This document shows positions 1,305-57,452 of a DNA stretch of 64,000 bases, piece after piece (the stretch's first letter is position 1; each line of letters opens with the position of its first letter). Position numbers and translations under genes: made by a program. The stretch covers positions 1 to 64,000 of IMG/VR virus record IMGVR_UViG_2934965791_000001; one strand, written 5' to 3'. The notes below the pieces were generated by a model. That model made no database searches. It was not told where the DNA came from and saw nothing but the letters and a program-made list of their open reading frames with translations. Source of the stretch: a virus. Its lineage: Duplodnaviria > Caudoviricetes.

Positions 1305-2879
1305 CTACTCGGGGTCCTGACCCCTTTCCGGGCTGCGGCGCGCTCGGGGTACCAGGGCGGCCGCCTTCTCCGCGATGTCCCGGTCTACGTCCTCCAGTAG
1401 CTCGGTGTACGTGTCGGATGTGAGCTGGATCGTCGAGTGCCGCAGCGTCTGCTTCACGGCGTGGATATCGCCGCCGCCGGCGTGGACGAGCGTGCCGGCG
1501 ACGTGTCGGCAGTCGCGCAGGTTGACCGGGGGCAGCTCCGCCCGTTTGCAGATCCTCCGGAATTCGTCCGACACCTTCTCGGGGTGGAGCCAGGTGCCGT
1601 CGATGTCCGTGAAGACCTTGCCGGTGTCCGTCCAGTCGGTGACGTCCTTGCCCTTGGCCCGCTCCTCTTCGACGTGCCGGTTCCAGGTGTCGCGCTCCTC
1701 CGTCTGCCGCACCCGGTGCTGTCGTAGGACGGCGACGTTCAGGGAGTCGAGGGCGATGGTGGTAGCCGATTCCTCGGTCTTCGGGTCGTCCTCGAAGACT
1801 TCCCAGTTGTCGACGTTCAGCGTGCGATTCGGGGTGATGAGGCCGGCGTCGAGGTCGACGTAGTGCCAGTCCTGCCCGACGCCTTCACCGCGGCGCAGGC
1901 CGCGGAACATGATCAGGTGGAAGAAGGCGTACAGCCTGGAGTCCTCGGCTGCGTCGAGGAAGGCGCCGGCCTGCGCTGGCGTCCACACCATGACGGGGCT
2001 TGGCTTCTCGCCGGTGCGCCGCCAGTGCGCGACGTGCTGATCCGTCCACAGCTTCGCCTTCGGTCGCTTGCCTGACTCCAGCTCGATCCACTCGGCCGGG
2101 TTGAAGGTGATGAGCTGCTTGCGGATCGCCCCGTTCAGCGCGGCGCGGAGGGTCGCCCTGATCCGCTGCTGCGTCGCCGGGCCGGTGATGAGTCGGTACG
2201 GCGGCATGATGGCCAGCTTCTCGCGCTCAGCCGCCAGGCGTTCGGACTCGGCCCGGGACGGCCGACCGTTCTTGCCCCACTTGCAGCGGGCTTCCTGCTC
2301 CCGGCGCGCGGCGTTCTCCGCGGCAACGACCTCGTTGGTTTCATCAATCGCGTCGAAGAACGCTTGGACGTGGCCGATGTTCAGCCGGTCGAGGCGGAAC
2401 CGGCCGAGGCCGGGCTTCAGGTGTACTCGGATGTGGGACTCGTAGCCCTTCGTCGTGCGCCGCTTCGTCTTCTTCGCGGCCACCCAGGCGTCGAGCCAGT
2501 CCGCGATGGTCATGTCACTGTCGAGGGATACGCCGCCGGCGAGCCGTCGCTTCACTTCGGCCGCGTCCGGGATGGGTGCGCGCTCGCTCTGCACCTTGGC
2601 GAGGAGGTCGCCGATCTGGACGGCGTGCTCCTCGTCGTCCTCGTCGGCTACGTCGCAGACGGCGCGGATCTTGTCGAGCTCCTTCTCCGCATCCTTGACC
2701 TGCGCGTAGCCGGTGCGGCGGAAGCGGCGGCGGTGCCCGTCCTTGTCGACGGGGAGTTCTTGGTGGATCTCGTACTTGCCGTGGTTCTTCTTTTTCAGGT
2801 CCGGGCACGACGTGCCGAGCCGCTTCTTGTCCGGGCCTCGACATTCGCAGCGCTTAGTTATGCCGCCAGCACGCCGCAC
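1305..2879 (-). CDS. int: Tyrosine recombinase, phage/AICE integrase
   Basis: FRGLRRGE, DPKT, LRDCRH, LRHS...DTY catalytic motifs; SAM-like domain (YESHIRVHLKPGLG). GTG start at 2879 with AGGAGG RBS. Confidence 0.95.
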   Translation of the reverse strand: MRRAGGITKRCECRGPDKKRLGTSCPDLKKKNHGKYEIHQELPVDKDGHRRRFRRTGYAQVKDAEKELDKIRAVCDVADEDDEEHAVQIGDLLAKVQSERAPIPDAAEVKRRLAGGVSLDSDMTIADWLDAWVAAKKTKRRTTKGYESHIRVHLKPGLGRFRLDRLNIGHVQAFFDAIDETNEVVAAENAARREQEARCKWGKNGRPSRAESERLAAEREKLAIMPPYRLITGPATQQRIRATLRAALNGAIRKQLITFNPAEWIELESGKRPKAKLWTDQHVAHWRRTGEKPSPVMVWTPAQAGAFLDAAEDSRLYAFFHLIMFRGLRRGEGVGQDWHYVDLDAGLITPNRTLNVDNWEVFEDDPKTEESATTIALDSLNVAVLRQHRVRQTEERDTWNRHVEEERAKGKDVTDWTDTGKVFTDIDGTWLHPEKVSDEFRRICKRAELPPVNLRDCRHVAGTLVHAGGGDIHAVKQTLRHSTIQLTSDTYTELLEDVDRDIAEKAAALVPRARRSPERGQDPE

Positions 2880-2902
2880 TGGGTCCTCCTGTTGATGTGT
2901 TC

Positions 2903-3742
2903 TTATCCGTGAGCCGGGTCGATATTTTCGGGCCAGGGAATGACCCAAGGCTCTACATCATTCCACGGCAATACGTATGGCTCGACGTCTTTCGGCAAAT
3001 AGGGCAGCGCCCACCCTTCCTCGGTAATGCGCCGCCTTACCGCCGCGATCTCTTTCCCCTGCCGCATGAGCGTTTGTTCGTGTCGCTCGATGGACTCCCG
3101 CTCGCGCTCGGAGTACCGCTCTAGCTCCCGCTCGGATCGTTGCAGGTCATCCAGGAAGACCTTGCCGATCTCGACCCATGACGGGTCGGCGGTGGCGTCG
3201 CCGGCCTCGACGCTGCGTAGCTTCTCCTCGACCGCCGCCTTCGCCTTCCGCTTTTCCTTTCCTTCATCTGCGACCGCGGCGATTCGCTCTCTCGCCTGCT
3301 CTAGAGACGAGATATGGAATCGAATTTCGGTGAGCAGGTCTCGATATTGACGCAGGACCCATAGGGGCTTCGCTCCCGTCGAGCGTGGCAGTTCGCGGGA
3401 GGGCGCGTTCCCGGCGAACCAGTCGAGGGCGTCGATTGGTTCGAAGGTGCGCTCCGGTAGCGCCTCGCAGGTCTCCTCGAATCCGACCGGGAATACCAAT
3501 TGCGCCGGCGCGACGTCCAGGGCGGCAGCGAGGACGAGCACCTCGGCGACCGTGACCGTGGATCGTCGGCCGCTCTCCATGTTCGCCAGTACCGAGCGCT
3601 GGATCGGCATCCCCAGTTCCGCACACCGGTCCGAGAGCTGCTGTGCACTCATCGCGCGGCGCTGCCGGTGCCGGCGCACCTCCTGCGCGACGGCCAGGGC
3701 CAGCCGCTCGGACCACGGGGACTCGGTCGGGACTTGTGTCAT
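2903..3742 (-). CDS. XRE-family HTH repressor with coiled-coil C-terminus
   Basis: VRRHRQRRAMSAQQLSDRC...RSVLANMESGRR...VAEVLVLAAALDV; upstream of int and divergent from xis. Confidence 0.9.
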   Translation of the reverse strand: MTQVPTESPWSERLALAVAQEVRRHRQRRAMSAQQLSDRCAELGMPIQRSVLANMESGRRSTVTVAEVLVLAAALDVAPAQLVFPVGFEETCEALPERTFEPIDALDWFAGNAPSRELPRSTGAKPLWVLRQYRDLLTEIRFHISSLEQARERIAAVADEGKEKRKAKAAVEEKLRSVEAGDATADPSWVEIGKVFLDDLQRSERELERYSERERESIERHEQTLMRQGKEIAAVRRRITEEGWALPYLPKDVEPYVLPWNDVEPWVIPWPENIDPAHG

Positions 3743-21198: not shown

Positions 21199-22284
21199 TC
21201 AGGGGTTGCCCGCAGCTTCCTTCCGCAGGATCGTCAGCAGCTCCTGGAGCATCGCGTTCAGGCGTACGGGCTCCGGGATGTTGTCCATGGTCAAGACCGG
21301 CACCGAGGGGCCGATCTGCCGGTGCATCGCGTCATCCGAGATGTCCTTGAAGTCGACCAGCTTCTGGGCGTGGATCTTGTCGGCCCGCTGCGTCACGAAC
21401 GCGTGCTGACTCGCGACCACCTTGAAGTCCTTGTGCCCGAACGCCGGCGCGATGTGGTCCATGATGGCCCGGATCATCGCGGCGCAGACGTACGCGTTGC
21501 CCGTCGCATAGGCGTCGTTCAGGCCGTTGCACAAGGCGATGAGCTTGTGGACCTTCCACGTGGTGCTCGCGGCCGCCGCCTCCAGGTCATCTAGGAGGCC
21601 CGGGTCGATGTACGGCGCCCGCTCGGGCTCGGCGGCCACCGGTGCCTCGACCACTGCGGCCGGAGCGTACTGGGCGGCATTCTTCAACACGATCTCGCAG
21701 GTCTTCTCGATGTACTCCTCCACGGTGTGGATGCCGCGGAACTGCATCACGCTGCGGGTCACCTCCCGTTCCCACCCGTCGCCGGTATGAGCGCCCCCGG
21801 TGCTGATGGCCGGCTCATGGGACAACAGGTCGGGCAGTACCTTGACGAACCAGGGGTCCAGGTCGGGGAGCGCGGCCTCCAGCTCACCGGAGCGCAGGAT
21901 GATGGTGGGAACCCCGTCGGTAAGAATCGGCCTGCCGATGTACAGGTCGATCATGTGACGGAGAGCGCGCACGAACGGCTCACCCACTGCGATCCGCCCC
22001 TTGGGCAACCTGTACAAGCCGGCGACGGTCAACCGCACCTTGTCGCCCGGGGCGATGGGCGCCCGCATCGGGATGGTGTAGCCGTACCCAGAGGCGTACG
22101 GGGCTTCGTGCCCCACACGCCGCAGTGAGTGGAAGATGGTGTCGGCGTCCCGGCCGTCCATGTCGAACTGGTGCTGGATGTTGGCCCACAGCGGCCACTC
22201 GCCGGTTTCCTTCCACGGCTGAGCGATGGCTACGAGGAGATCCCGCTGGTCCGGCGTGAGCGTCAGGTTGAGGAGCATGCTCAA
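21199..22284 (-). CDS. Hypothetical protein with HEPN/Abi-like C-terminal domain
   Basis: LNDAYATGNAYVCAAMIRAIMDH...KDISDDAMH; helical pattern resembles HEPN/DUF4145. Confidence 0.6.
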   Translation of the reverse strand: MSMLLNLTLTPDQRDLLVAIAQPWKETGEWPLWANIQHQFDMDGRDADTIFHSLRRVGHEAPYASGYGYTIPMRAPIAPGDKVRLTVAGLYRLPKGRIAVGEPFVRALRHMIDLYIGRPILTDGVPTIILRSGELEAALPDLDPWFVKVLPDLLSHEPAISTGGAHTGDGWEREVTRSVMQFRGIHTVEEYIEKTCEIVLKNAAQYAPAAVVEAPVAAEPERAPYIDPGLLDDLEAAAASTTWKVHKLIALCNGLNDAYATGNAYVCAAMIRAIMDHIAPAFGHKDFKVVASQHAFVTQRADKIHAQKLVDFKDISDDAMHRQIGPSVPVLTMDNIPEPVRLNAMLQELLTILRKEAAGNP

Positions 22285-22386
22285 GGAAACCCCTTGGTGC
22301 GAAGTACGAGTGACGGGCCACCATGGGGCACGCGCCTTATCCGACAGAACGTCAGATGACTCATCCTACCGCTCCCTGCGGGTACA

Positions 22387-22420
22387 ACACCCCCGTATAA
22401 TCTCCAATATACGAGGGTGG
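22387..22420. other. loxP-like recombination site (13-8-13)
   Basis: ACACCCCCGTATA-ATCTCCAA-TATACGAGGGTGG; arms 11/13 complementary; inner CGTATA/TATACGA identical to loxP. Confidence 0.8.
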
Positions 22421-22441
22421 TTGGCCAGGAGGGATTTACAC

Positions 22442-23623
22442 GTGGACGACGCCGACGGCGGTATCGAGGTTGTCGAAGGAGAACTCGTCGATGAGGACCG
22501 GCTGCCGGCCGTCCTCGACGACCCTGCCAGCATCCTCGCCGGTGCCCTCGCCCGACCGGTCATCACCCGGCACACGGTGCTGCGCCCGGGGGAACTCCCG
22601 ACGACCGAGCGGCCGGCGTACACCGCGGCGGACATCTACATCTCGCCGGAGACCGCCGCGGCCATCGACGAGCGGTCGATGCCGGGGAACACCGAGCGCA
22701 ACTACCGTAGCCAGCGCGGGATGTTCGAGCGCTGGTGCGACGACATGGGCCGGGTGGCCAACCCGTGCACGACGGCGACGTACATCGAGTACGTCGCGGC
22801 CCTCATCGCCCGGAGCAGCTACAGCCCCAACTCGATCAAGGCCCACAAGTCGGCCGTCCGCAGCATGCAGCCCGAGGACGCGAAGCCCGGCACGGCCGTC
22901 GTCAACGGCCTCATCAAGGAGTACGCCAAGAGCTGGAGCAAGGCACACCGGGTGAAGAAGGCGCCGGCCATCCCCGACGACAGGTTCCGCGCCATGGTGG
23001 CCAGTTGCGACCAGCGGCACCCCATCGGCATCCGCGACCGGTGGGCCCTTGTCGTCGGCCGCGGCGCCCTGCACCGCCGCATCGAACTCGCCGACCTGCT
23101 CGTCGAACAGATCGAGGTGGATGACGACTTCGTCGCGCACTGGGTCGCCATGTCAAAGACCGACCAGGACGCGGACGGTGAGGAGACGCCGATGCCGGCC
23201 GACCCCGACGACCCCCTCACCTGCCCCGTCGACGCGACCCGCGCATGGCTCAACTGCCTCTGGCGGCTCGGCATCCGCAGCGGGCCGGCGTACCGGGCCC
23301 TGACCGTCGCCGGCACGCTGCAGAACCGGGTCAGGGCCACTGCCCGCGGCGAGCACGTCAGCGGCGACGCCGTCAACGACATGGTCCGCGGCCGCGCGTT
23401 CGCCGCGGACCTGCCCAACTGGCAGGCCGTCACCGCGCACAGTCTGCGCCGCACCGGAGCGCAGCGCATCGCCGACGCCGGCGGCGACCCGACCCGCCAG
23501 GGCCGGTGGAAGGACGGCTCCACGGTCGTACAGAAGGAGTACCTGGCCCGGGCGCAGACCCGCGCCGACAACCCCTGGTTGAAGGTGCAGGAGAAGCGGC
23601 GGAAGATGGCCGCCCACGAATAG
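22442..23623 (+). CDS. Cre-type tyrosine recombinase
   Basis: N-terminal NTERNY..FERWC; GIRDRWAL..HRRIEL, SKTDQ, CPV, AHSLRRTGA, QGRW..KEY (R-K-H-R-W-Y as in Cre). GTG start with AGGAGG RBS. Confidence 0.9.
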   Translation: MDDADGGIEVVEGELVDEDRLPAVLDDPASILAGALARPVITRHTVLRPGELPTTERPAYTAADIYISPETAAAIDERSMPGNTERNYRSQRGMFERWCDDMGRVANPCTTATYIEYVAALIARSSYSPNSIKAHKSAVRSMQPEDAKPGTAVVNGLIKEYAKSWSKAHRVKKAPAIPDDRFRAMVASCDQRHPIGIRDRWALVVGRGALHRRIELADLLVEQIEVDDDFVAHWVAMSKTDQDADGEETPMPADPDDPLTCPVDATRAWLNCLWRLGIRSGPAYRALTVAGTLQNRVRATARGEHVSGDAVNDMVRGRAFAADLPNWQAVTAHSLRRTGAQRIADAGGDPTRQGRWKDGSTVVQKEYLARAQTRADNPWLKVQEKRRKMAAHE

Positions 23624-23663
23624 GCACTCGCGGCGCCGGGCCCGATCACAAGGTCGTCGTCAC

Positions 23664-24431
23664 TTACGCCACGGTGAAGGGGACCCGGGCGACGATCAGG
23701 TCTGCGGACTCCAGCATGATGCCCACCTCGTTCTGCTCCAGCGACGGGGGCACCGGCAGGCCCGCCCCAGGGCCGCAGAAGATCGGGACGCCCTCCGGGT
23801 GCACCCCTACGCGAGCAAGCCAGCCGGGGGGCAGCGGGGTGTCCTCGTCGAACAGGACGTAGCCGTCGACGTGGGCCAGGCGCAGCCGGCACGGGGCGGA
23901 CGGCTCCGGGCCGCGGGTGACCGTGGCGGCCCAGCCGGGGGCGGCAAGGCGGGAGACCCGGTCATAGCGGAACCCCTGGTCGTACAGCTGGACCATCCAG
24001 GAGTGGCCCCAGTGCCCGTAGGCGCCGCGCCGGGTGTCGGCCGGCGGGGTGTAGGTCAGGGGCTCCACGATCAGTGCGGCCTCGGGGCCGTAGAAGGCGG
24101 TCCGGGCAAACAGCGACAGCACCGCCTTCTGCTCTGGGTCGGCCACGGACGGTACCGGGCGCGCGTAGCAGTAGGGGGCCGGAGCGTCGGCGCACACCGG
24201 GTAGTCGACCGTCCGCTTCAGCCAGCCCGGGGTCTCACTCGGCGGGGTCATCGCGTAGTGGGAGCCCGGGTCGTACGGGGTCTCGTCCGCGGCGCGCAGT
24301 TGGTCGTCAGTGGGGGCCTCGTGGGTGGCCCACCGCTTCACGATCCGGTGCGCCTGGCCATAGGCAAGGTCTTCCTCGTCCGCCAGCACTCGGGCGGTTT
24401 CCTTGAGGGCAGTGTGGGCGTGCTTCGACAT
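23664..24431 (-). CDS. Hypothetical protein
   Basis: 255-aa ORF from MSKHAHTALKETAR; GC3-rich. Confidence 0.65.
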   Translation of the reverse strand: MSKHAHTALKETARVLADEEDLAYGQAHRIVKRWATHEAPTDDQLRAADETPYDPGSHYAMTPPSETPGWLKRTVDYPVCADAPAPYCYARPVPSVADPEQKAVLSLFARTAFYGPEAALIVEPLTYTPPADTRRGAYGHWGHSWMVQLYDQGFRYDRVSRLAAPGWAATVTRGPEPSAPCRLRLAHVDGYVLFDEDTPLPPGWLARVGVHPEGVPIFCGPGAGLPVPPSLEQNEVGIMLESADLIVARVPFTVA

Positions 24432-24713
24432 GGCGCTGTTCCTAGTAGGCCGGCCAGGACCCCACGCGTCCTCGCCGCTGTAAGGAGGCAGGCGAGCACA
24501 GACGGTCAGTGATGTAACCCTGCGGGCCCTCCGGACCTTGGCCCCGTGCCCGGCGTGGGTGGGCGGGGGTAACGGCGTGCGCGTCCAGCCGTGGTGGACA
24601 CGGTAACCCATCCCGCCGACGTTGCGGACAAAATGATCACTAACCTCCCCTTGCGTGTAGCTACACAATCGGGCAAGATGTGCACGTCACCGCCCCCGAC
24701 CAGAGAGGACACC

Positions 24714-36656: not shown

Positions 36657-37118
36657 TCAGTGGTGACTCATGGCTGCACGCCAGGCGGAGTAGTAGAGAT
36701 TCGCGAGCGCGCCGGAGGCGGCGAGCTTTTCGTAGGACGGGCGGACGTAGGGCCGAGGCGGTAGTTCCGTCGCCCCGCCGCGGCCGGTGATGCCGCCGAG
36801 TTCCTGGATCCGGCCATAGACGGCCGTGGGGCCGATCTGCGCCTCCCACCGGCCGCGACCCAGCGGGGTGGGGCCCTTGACGGTGATGGAGCGGCGCAGG
36901 GTGCCGGTGATGAGTGACGGGGGCTCGCCCGGGCGGGACGGTGTCGGCGTGCCGCGGGGGTGGCTGGACGTCGACAGCGTCTGTTTGATCTCCCGCTCTA
37001 GGAGGTGCGACGCCTGCGCGGTCGCCGTGCGGGTCGCCGCGTCGAACGTGCCGACCAAGCCCTCAAGGGCTGCGGTCAGTTGGTGTAGGCCGATGACCTC
37101 GACGGAACTGCCCGACAT
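36657..37118 (-). CDS. HK97 gp10-like tail completion protein
   Basis: PP..ITGTLRRSI, YGRIQELGG, PPRPYVRP. Confidence 0.85.
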   Translation of the reverse strand: MSGSSVEVIGLHQLTAALEGLVGTFDAATRTATAQASHLLEREIKQTLSTSSHPRGTPTPSRPGEPPSLITGTLRRSITVKGPTPLGRGRWEAQIGPTAVYGRIQELGGITGRGGATELPPRPYVRPSYEKLAASGALANLYYSAWRAAMSHH

Positions 37119-37122
37119 GCCG

Positions 37123-37372
37123 TCACCCCCGCTCGGCGTCGCGCATGGCCCGGTCGTGGGCGGCTTCCTTGGCGGCGTCGACTTCCATCGCCATGAGTGG
37201 GAGCCGGGCATCCAGCCACGCCGGGATCTCGTCGACCTGGGCTGGCGTCCACCGGTACCGCTCGGCGTACCAGAGGTAGTCGTACGCCTCGTCGACCGGG
37301 GTGATCGGGTGCCCGGCGGGGACGTCGTGCCCCTCCAGCCGCGCCCTTAGTCGGCGGAGGGCGCGGTAGGGG
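37123..37372 (-). CDS. Tail assembly chaperone extension (gpT), reached by -1 frameshift
   Basis: -1 frame reads PYRALRRLRARLEG..AERYRWTPAQVDEIPAW..ERG*; overlaps the gpG end. Confidence 0.75.
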
Positions 37373-37747: not shown

Positions 37748-38997
37748 TAGAAGGTGCCGGGCGGCACGTTGTTGGTGATGGACACCTTGATCGGGCTGTA
37801 TCCGCCCGACCCGCCGGCGTTGCTCGTGTTGAACAGGGCCTGGAAGCTGTTGCCGTACTCGACGGCGTTCTTCGTTCCGTCGGCCTCGGAGTCGGTGAAC
37901 GCGGCCAGCTGGCAATCCACCTGGAAAGTCAGCTTGTTGACGCCGGTCAGGCCGTTGTCGAGGAGGAGCTGAAGCTGCGGCTGCGTGTTGTTCAGCATCC
38001 AGAGCAGCGGCGACTCGTCGGCCGCGACGAAGTTGAGCTTGCCCTCGACGGACAGGCCGCCGCGCTGGATGACGTACGGGCCCTGGCTGCCGTTGACCGT
38101 GTAGTAAGGGGACAGCTCCCGCTTGATGGTCAGTTCGCCGTCGGTGACGGTGGGGATCAGCGTCGCGCCGGCGGCCGGCCCGCCGATGCCGACGAGCATG
38201 CGCCAGGAGGCGACGGGCAGCACCGTGGACGGGGACGCGACGGGGGCGACGCCGGCCGGGACGGACGGGAACGACGTCCCCTTGCCCGACCAGGTCAGAA
38301 GCTCGCTCTCCGCGTTCCACTTCAGGCCGAGTTCCGACAGGCACAGGCCCGGGTACTGGCGGGCGCCCGACGTCGCGGTCGGGCCGAGGAAGTGAGTCAG
38401 GGTGTGGCTGACGGGCTGCCCGCCACCGGAGTTGAGAAGGCCGTGCGCCTGGGTGAAGGGCGCGGTCACCGGCTGCACGGCCTGAGTGGCGGCGTGCGTG
38501 TAGGCGAGGCCGCCGGTCGGCGTGGCCAGCGGGATGGTGTAGGGGCCGGCGCCGGTCGGGGTACCGGTCACGAAGCACTCGGCGGTCGCACCGGATCCGA
38601 TCTGCACGGTCGTGCCAGCGGGGATGGTCGCCGCCGTCTGGATCGAGGTTGCGCCAGCGGTCGCCTGGACGGACAGCGTGGTGCCGCCCGACCCGGTCGA
38701 GGTACCGGTGTACGCGAGGTCGCCGAGGATGTTCCGCAGGAAGAAGCCGATGCCGTCGCCGTAGGCGGGGCCGCCGAGCTCCACTTCCGCGATCTTCGTA
38801 CCGGCGATCTTCGCGAAGGCGTCGTTACCCATACTCCCCCTCCACGACTTGTCGTCGAGGAAGGTGGGGTTGTCCTTGGGCTTGACCTCGTCGACGAGGA
38901 CCGTCGACGTCATCGCGACCGCCGTTCCCTGGACGGCCTCCGTGGCTATGCCTACGAACTGCTTGGCGGGCGCGAAGGTCTGGGGGGTACCGGCCAC
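37747..38997 (-). CDS. Major tail (tube) protein
   Basis: FVGIATEAVQGT N-terminus; position before chaperones and tape measure. Confidence 0.85.
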   Translation of the reverse strand: MAGTPQTFAPAKQFVGIATEAVQGTAVAMTSTVLVDEVKPKDNPTFLDDKSWRGSMGNDAFAKIAGTKIAEVELGGPAYGDGIGFFLRNILGDLAYTGTSTGSGGTTLSVQATAGATSIQTAATIPAGTTVQIGSGATAECFVTGTPTGAGPYTIPLATPTGGLAYTHAATQAVQPVTAPFTQAHGLLNSGGGQPVSHTLTHFLGPTATSGARQYPGLCLSELGLKWNAESELLTWSGKGTSFPSVPAGVAPVASPSTVLPVASWRMLVGIGGPAAGATLIPTVTDGELTIKRELSPYYTVNGSQGPYVIQRGGLSVEGKLNFVAADESPLLWMLNNTQPQLQLLLDNGLTGVNKLTFQVDCQLAAFTDSEADGTKNAVEYGNSFQALFNTSNAGGSGGYSPIKVSITNNVPPGTF

Positions 38998-57373: not shown

Positions 57374-57381
57374 GGATTCTG

Positions 57382-57452
57382 CAGGATCGGCAGGAATCGA
57401 ACCTGCACTTGCGGTTTTGGAGACCGCTGCTATCCCGTTGAGCTACGACCCC
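57382..57452 (-). tRNA. tRNA-Trp (CCA), phage-encoded
   Basis: GGGGTCG-TAGCTCAACGGGATAGCA-GCGGT-CTCCAAA-ACCGC-AAGT-GCAGG-TTCGATT-CCTGC-CGATCCT-G. Full cloverleaf; 3' CCA not encoded. Confidence 0.9.

Follow-up and report, generated by a model that had tools for sequence, protein, structure and literature searches.

A candidate Cre-like recombinase and its lox-like site, which may double as a promoter, in a pZL12-type Streptomyces phage-plasmid

We analysed a 64,000-nucleotide stretch of DNA, referred to below as the window, which comprises positions 1 to 64,000 of IMG/VR virus record IMGVR_UViG_2934965791_000001 (Duplodnaviria; Caudoviricetes), and focused on a 34-bp inverted repeat and the tyrosine recombinase gene, P0001, that follows it. 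The original prediction, made from the letters of the window, described a 34-bp site with 13-bp arms that are complementary at 11 of 13 positions and an asymmetric 8-bp spacer, ending 21 bp before the second tyrosine recombinase of the element. The string, the arm complementarity, the spacer and the distance (21 bp from the end of the site to the GTG at 22442 of P0001) are all exactly as it described them, and the locus contains the following features.

22387-22420, no strand assigned: 34-bp lox-like core site (13-8-13), ACACCCCCGTATA-ATCTCCAA-TATACGAGGGTGG, located by exact string match
22387-22399, no strand assigned: left arm, ACACCCCCGTATA, read from the sequence
22400-22407, plus strand: asymmetric 8-bp spacer, ATCTCCAA (family consensus ATTTCCCT), the putative crossover region
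22408-22420, no strand assigned: right arm, TATACGAGGGTGG, read from the sequence
22396-22401, plus strand: TATAAT, the putative -10 element of the recombinase operon, spanning the left inner arm and the start of the spacer
22421-22441, plus strand: leader with an AGGAGGG ribosome-binding site (22427-22433), read from the sequence
22442-23623, plus strand: tyrosine recombinase P0001, 393 aa, assigned from its GTG start, catalytic set and fold match
Catalytic codons of P0001: R212, 23075-23077; E215, 23084-23086; K239, 23156-23158; H333, 23438-23440; R336, 23447-23449; W356, 23507-23509; Y367, 23540-23542

When the left arm ACACCCCCGTATA is set against the reverse complement of the right arm (CCACCCTCGTATA), the two mismatches fall at arm positions 1 and 7. 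The site is present as a single copy in the window, as had been noted originally, and the same is true of the whole 99,284-bp virus record, in which neither a second copy with up to 8 substitutions nor a second arm pair was found. Repeats of this general form are abundant, and 13-8-13 repeats with at least 11 of 13 matches occur 30 times in the record, compared with 5.7 ± 2.2 expected from 30 first-order Markov simulations; the significance of the site derives from its conservation in relatives and not from its being palindromic. Three of the 30 repeats are pairs of TGTAGCTACA boxes, located beyond the window at 72851, 76936 and 83220.

A P0001 protein profile was used to fetch 47 genome loci, consisting of L001-L038 and nine loci that hold gene fragments only. 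All but one of the 38 loci L001-L038 have a homologous site upstream of the gene, and its orientation never changes; 33 of these 37 sites were recovered with a strict pattern and two with a looser pattern, and the remaining two are variants with 7- or 9-bp centres. Neither pattern gave a site at L036, where the gene is partial and lies at a contig end, or at any of the nine gene-fragment loci. A scan of a viral collection for the centre alone, independent of the gene, gave 34 matches, among which all 12 high-GC matches have a P0001 homologue downstream (36.6-61.8% identity), and the other 22, which are low-GC and have neither arms nor gene, are chance matches. The conserved palindrome upstream of homologues on which the original prediction was staked is thus seen both in the genome loci and in the high-GC viral matches, although the two sets partly overlap (L077 is L011, and L062 is L030) and are not fully independent.

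The same arrangement is found on pFP11, a 35-kb MOBF plasmid that is not a phage, where the site is directly upstream of a recombinase 45% identical to P0001. The 18-bp centre occurs exactly once, beside the gene, in each of five whole genomes (7.9-10.1 Mb), and in all four further plasmid records the site is present once, beside an intact gene, with extra split or truncated copies of the gene having no site. At every locus the spacer points the same way with respect to the gene, and the recombinase is the sole constant partner of the dyad. On one chromosomal-size contig (L038:2574-2607) the left arm and TATAAT have degenerated (CATATGG) and only a truncated recombinase match remains (residues 9-312), such that the site and the gene seem to be decaying together. 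The relatives from pZL12 and Gilgamesh, at 28-31% identity, gave no member of this family of sites; pZL12 carries an unrelated 12/13 palindrome of 13-8-13 form (L051:3210-3243) between divergent genes, some 790 bp upstream of the gene for pZL12.36c.

Alignment of 36 sites shows that the centre TATAATTTCCCTT is nearly invariant, that the spacer is almost fixed as ATTTCCCT, and that the TATAAT positions are invariant or nearly so. Arm positions 2, 3, 5, 6 and 8-13 and their mirrors are conserved, and positions 1, 4 and 7 and their mirrors are variable. The outer arms change across the family while dyad symmetry persists, with 77.9% of cells paired compared with at most 51% when the partners are slid, and with 20 cells changed on both sides compared with 12.5 ± 2.2 in shuffles, a number reached by none of 500 shuffles. 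Two examples with the same centre are L055 (47% identity), which has a perfect 13/13 dyad with GTAGCC...GGCTAC arms, and L064 (37% identity), which has an 11/13 dyad with CTTACCGCC...GGCGGTAAC arms. At 35-36% identity, L091:2884-2917 and L090:1813-1846 have CTTACC-type dyads around a different, GC-rich centre that lacks TATAAT and that may be inverted between the two. Arm types track the recombinase clades.

The GTG start of P0001 at 22442 agrees with the N-termini of 17 homologues, and a longer, ATG-started open reading frame (ORF) from 22226 is unsupported. The motifs R212/R213-I-E215-L, S-K239-T-D-Q, H333-S-L-R336-R, G-R-W356 and E-Y367 are all invariant in an alignment of 18 sequences, and the catalytic residues R, E, K, H, R, W and Y are retained down to 35-37% identity. 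Alignment with P1 Cre (MAFFT; Cre translated from the P1 record) places these motifs on the Cre stretches LLRIAEIA, TKT, GHSARVG, GGW and NYI, and the Cre catalytic residues are R173, K201, H289, R292, W315 and Y324 (numbering from the main text of PMC10250229). A single-pair BLASTP comparison with Cre gives a weak match (E 0.021) in the correct register, pairing R212 with R173, E215 with E176 and K239 with K201. The fifth catalytic position is a Cre-type Trp in P0001, and His in pZL12.36c and in a Roseomonas relative. The Cre-type catalytic set originally proposed for P0001 is therefore complete, and as judged from its sequence the enzyme looks active.

The PF00589 match of P0001 scores 20.4 bits, below the cut-off of 27.1 (E 4.7e-4), and a precomputed PF00589 match is present in many of the homologues. 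Among PDB sequences, Cre was found neither by phmmer with P0001 (E up to 1) nor by the 18-sequence profile (E up to 10), and no other recombinase was convincingly matched by either. Comparison with Cre by hhalign gave a probability of 9.5%, and the identity of P0001 and Cre is about 18-20% (about 18% in the multiple alignment). We also examined an AlphaFold model of P0001 (mean predicted local distance difference test score, pLDDT, 71; predicted template modelling score, pTM, 0.53), in which residues 1-66 are disordered. Cre and its variants take every one of Foldseek ranks 1-31 with this model (best E 1.1e-8; template modelling score up to 0.69, target), followed by XerA (E 1.7e-5) and lambda Int (E 5.6e-5). 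Superposition of model residues 75-391 on Cre 32-343 with VIA-align covers both domains, with Z 19.5 and a root-mean-square deviation (rmsd) of 4.4 over 287 residues, compared with Z 16.0 for XerH, 15.7 for IntI and 14.4 for lambda Int; XerA has Z 19.3, but with an rmsd of 14.8 over 236 residues. P0001 is hence Cre-like in fold and chemistry, yet outside the Cre family at the level of sequence. The Cre/lox-type kinship proposed in the original prediction thus holds for the motifs and for the fold, with Cre as the best structural match, and finds no support from HMMER or hhalign.

The first 66 residues of P0001 (22442-22640) form an acidic extension, with a motif like EVVDAELVDDD-LPA, which the Streptomyces subfamily conserves and Cre lacks. 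Most of the remote relatives of 330-350 aa begin at profile position 50-60.

The window is taken from a free-standing virus record, the ends of which do not overlap by 20 bp or more. Products encoded in the record include a tape-measure protein, a portal fusion, a large terminase, an endolysin, a ParB-methyltransferase and a replication initiator-like protein. The record matches a Streptomyces phage-plasmid of the pZL12/pSLE1 type, these plasmid-phages being about 86-100 kb in size, with a virion module beside plasmid functions, a type III polyketide synthase and two 'integrase' genes, to which the accessible part of the pSLE1 genome paper assigns no roles (PMC4487206). P0001 homologues come almost entirely from Streptomyces, many of them from 88-100-kb contigs or from complete circular records labelled 'plasmid unnamed', and the circular relatives are plasmids of about 88-135 kb together with the 35-kb pFP11. 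The element was initially taken to be a prophage, and integration is not borne out by these contexts. Stable inheritance of pFP11 is said to need 'additional loci'. Two further features of the window bear on the interpretation of the site.

1305-2948, minus strand: first tyrosine recombinase/integrase, 547 aa (PF00589, E 7e-8; phrog_1, E 4e-39)
21199-22284, minus strand: divergent neighbour P0002, 361 aa, with no family match, given for context

On pFP11 the recombinase also has a divergent neighbour (L089:925-2010), which shares 71% identity with P0002, and most of the other loci have unrelated DNA on this side, such that P0002 is not a constant partner of the site.

Because the neighbour upstream of the site is divergent, the promoter of the recombinase operon must lie within 22285-22441, an interval of 157 bp that includes the site. 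The position and conservation of TATAAT suggest that it is the -10 element of this promoter, and a consensus promoter scan of 21900-22900 returned no -35/-10 pair. Sequencing runs listed for 21200-24700 comprise one DNA run, from which the record itself may derive, and no RNA run. In relatives, the site is followed by a similar short leader with a purine-rich box and then by a start codon, whichever gene comes next, and an ORF rich in G+C at third codon positions opens within 36 bp of the site at 25 of 35 loci. The first ORF after the site is the recombinase in the window and in a few relatives, and at other loci various cargo genes take this place, ahead of the recombinase (examples lie between the site-leader and the recombinase at L003:2624-2986, L017:2441-2980 and L015:2757-2984). 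The cargo ORFs include a HIT-domain protein, a weak HAD match and proteins of 73-215 aa, with eight of ten tested having no Pfam match, and at four loci there are 2.3-2.9 kb of cargo genes between site and recombinase; they look like genes gathered under one promoter. Part of the conservation of the site may thus be regulatory.

The site also coincides with a junction in the surrounding DNA. Twenty-two pairs of loci have nearly identical right flanks and unrelated left flanks, and two pairs show the reverse; in printed alignments the flank homology stops at or inside the site. Within the 22 pairs the left arm differs on average by 2.0 positions, the spacer by 0.64 and the right arm by 0.77, a pattern that is suggestive only, as three of them have 4-5 right-arm differences and most come from one clade. 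Identity to the pFP11 counterparts is 71% for P0002 on one side of the site and 45% for the recombinase on the other, indicating that history switches at the site, and all four combinations of two left-arm types and two right-arm types are present among close relatives. This mosaic pattern fits crossing-over between replicons at the shared centre, and it also fits stepwise compensatory change or a plain module boundary.

We favour, at somewhat better than even chances, the interpretation that P0001 and the site are a Cre-like pair for resolution of multimers or cointegrates, carried by pZL12-type phage-plasmids and by plasmids, with the site doubling as the promoter and operator of the operon. 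It is based on the recombinase being the constant partner of the dyad, the active appearance of the enzyme, the lox-type geometry, the presence of one directional copy, and the mostly circular nature of the replicons. By analogy with Cre and loxP, one P0001 monomer would bind each 13-bp arm, and dimerization of the replicon would bring two sites into synapsis; Tyr367 would then cleave at either border of the asymmetric 6-8-bp centre, after which strand exchange, with the crossover presumably falling within the spacer at 22400-22407, would restore the monomers. P0001 bound over the TATAAT-containing site would at the same time repress its own transcription, and the operon is probably autoregulated in this manner. 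One directional site on each replicon is consistent with the resolution of multimers or cointegrates. The original proposal of a cognate, single-copy site serving resolution rather than inversion is accordingly supported by the copy number, the linkage, the catalytic set and the fold. Taken as a whole it is supported in part: it treated the element as a prophage and did not include the overlap with the promoter, the kinship with Cre lies in fold and motifs, and its further suggestions, that the recombinase would act without accessory factors and might be orthogonal to Cre, are conjectural.

A different account, possible but unlikely in our estimation, is that the site is a promoter and operator only, with the TATAAT centre driving the operon and the arms binding a repressor, either the recombinase or another protein, and with no recombination taking place. 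This would explain why TATAAT is nearly invariant and is followed by a conserved leader, a ribosome-binding box and a first ORF of any kind, why conservation is stronger in the left inner arm, which bears TATAAT, than in its mirror (T12 never varies, whereas A23 is G in 15 of 35 sites), and it agrees with the confinement of the promoter to 22285-22441 by the divergent gene. The recombinase-fold phage repressors MrpR, YopR and SroF are, moreover, in the fold list of P0001, at Z 11.6-12.9 and below Cre. To our knowledge, repressors of this type lack the catalytic residues, whereas the seven catalytic residues are invariant in the 18 sequences and kept to 35-37% identity, which would be hard to account for in a pure DNA binder. 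The L091/L090 subfamily retains the dyad without TATAAT, the consensus scan found no -35/-10 promoter at the site, and no neighbour besides the recombinase is constant; each genome also has just one site, where a master repressor would use many operators, and arm centres 21 bp apart are wide for a helix-turn-helix dimer. We consider it improbable that P0001 is instead an integrase and the site an attP through which the element integrates into a chromosomal attB, even though databases label the homologues 'integrase', some homologues are on very long contigs (P0006 on 11.6 Mb, and L006 on 400 kb), and L039 and L040 are chromosomal gene fragments. The relatives are free circular plasmids in which the site is intact and unsplit, no arm-type repeat array is present within 500 bp on either side of the site, a separate 547-aa integrase is already encoded in the record, and the symmetric 13-8-13 form is lox-like and not attP-like; the finding of the centre only once, beside the gene, in five whole genomes points the same way but is a weak test, as an attB may share few bases with it.

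The consensus inner arms, ATAA ... TTAT around a 6-bp centre, are reminiscent of dif-type sites, and a plasmid dif/cer-like site resolved by host Xer, with the neighbouring gene incidental, would have this appearance. That explanation is very improbable, given that the site strictly co-occurs with the recombinase gene in every context examined, that the arms change along with the recombinase clades, and that no second, chromosomal copy is found in the five genomes. Least probable of all is a chance palindrome or a transcription terminator, for which the 30 comparable repeats in the record might be invoked. It is contradicted by conservation of the site at 36-60% protein identity amid unrelated flanks, and the position of the site upstream of a gene start and not past a gene end, the lack of a T-run after it, and an empty terminator scan are further points against a terminator.

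Several observations nonetheless weigh against the resolution pair that we prefer. The inverted repeat by itself is ordinary, being one of 30 such repeats in the record; poor palindromes occur in the family (5/13 at L010, 6/13 at L033, and 7/13 at L003 and L031), and there is a systematic difference between left and right arms at positions 1 and 4. Arm covariation is modest, and shuffles can be exceeded by related sequences even when nothing constrains them. A nearly invariant centre, a conserved leader and a short, fixed spacing ahead of the next start codon would all be expected from a promoter region alone. HMMER and hhalign do not link the sequence of P0001 to Cre, and the confidence of the structural model is middling, as its pLDDT and pTM values indicate. 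One intact pair is on a linear 359-kb plasmid, NZ_CP108606.1 (L094), where dimer resolution would be unneeded; that plasmid also has a second copy of the gene, split in two (36734-37255 and 38123-38758) and without a site. Finally, on a recombinase tree of 48 tips, the gene-distal arm is not more homoplastic than the proximal arm (retention 0.48 vs 0.40), and crossing-over at the centre between elements is thus unsupported by the tree test; L038 was left out of this tree because its translated match is only 185 aa.

Among known systems the closest is Cre/loxP of P1, which is likewise carried by a phage-plasmid, and in which a two-domain tyrosine recombinase with the R-K-H-R-W-Y set, the best fold match of P0001, acts on a 34-bp 13-8-13 site that is single-copy and upstream of the gene. 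As read from the P1 record, loxP is ATAACTTCGTATA-GCATACAT-TATACGAAGTTAT, and 9 of 13 positions are identical in each arm (18 of 26), including the inner CGTATA/TATACGA; the original observation that the inner arms match loxP and that the outer arms are different and GC-rich is hence correct, and with 18 of 26 arm positions in common, cross-reaction with Cre/loxP is possible. The P1 layout is also similar, as promoter P4cre stops 14 bp short of lox, and lox is separated from cre by the small ORF cra, just as small ORFs intervene in the relatives described here, although it is looser than that of the window, where the site itself holds TATAAT and abuts the start codon. There are clear differences, in that P0001 is so distant from Cre in sequence and has an additional acidic N-terminal segment of about 65 aa, disordered in the model, and in that its arms, compared with those of loxP, are imperfect, GC-rich on the outside, and conserved in their left/right asymmetry.

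XerA of archaea and XerH/difH, the next-best folds, are comparable systems in which one tyrosine recombinase resolves dimers at one dyad site with a short centre. Xer enzymes have His at the position of the Cre Trp, whereas the Trp of P0001 is Cre-like, and the system described here is plasmid-borne and not chromosomal. ResD/rfsF of F and resolvase/res of Tn3-type elements offer a precedent, on circular replicons, for a dedicated recombinase beside a single cis site that overlaps its promoter, with binding causing repression; the Tn3 resolvases, unlike P0001, are serine recombinases with a multi-subsite res. The pZL12 family differs as well, since pZL12.36c aligns with just 57% of P0001, at 28% identity, and its residue equivalent to Cre W315 is His.

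Mining for Cre-type systems has used the criteria of a 300-400-aa protein, the six Cre catalytic residues, half-sites of 13-15 bp with an 8-bp spacer and no more than two asymmetries, and a distance of up to 1 kb, according to the main text of PMC10250229. The pair described here has every one of these properties (393 aa, six residues, 11/13 arms, an 8-bp spacer, and a site 21 bp upstream), and 13-bp arms with centres 21 bp apart fit the lox geometry given there. The Vika/vox, Nigri/nox and Panto/pox set was found by similarity to Cre, from which P0001 is too remote to be recovered in that way, and neither Streptomyces nor 'Actino' occurs in the main text of that study, although its supplementary tables might list actinobacterial candidates (PMC10250229). 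Literature searches found no published description of the pair formed by P0001 and the site. This kind of system is well known, and specialists would expect and not be surprised by a plasmid-borne Cre-like resolvase as such; the embedding of the site in a promoter is a possible twist. If our preferred interpretation is correct, the pair would be a native Cre-like tool for Streptomyces genetics with a target that differs from loxP in its outer arms, and one that may serve as a new engineering tool, with the arm variants of the family available for comparisons of orthogonality. A recombination site with a promoter and cargo behind it would also constitute a compact maintenance site doubling as an expression platform, and a role would be provided for the second 'integrase' left unexplained in the genome paper of the pZL12-like pSLE1, as far as its accessible text goes (PMC4487206).

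A broader proposal, which we put forward tentatively and regard as rather unlikely, is that Streptomyces plasmids and phage-plasmids hold a natural series of Cre-like pairs that share a crossover-promoter core, TATAATTTCCCTT, and have diverged arms. If so, the shared core would let co-resident replicons recombine there, swapping left and right modules and collecting cargo under the promoter, and the diverged arms would represent a ready set of GC-rich lox systems that are orthogonal to one another and come from actinomycetes themselves.

A minor feature of the window is a tRNA-Trp (CCA) gene at 57381-57452 on the minus strand, situated inside the virion and packaging region.

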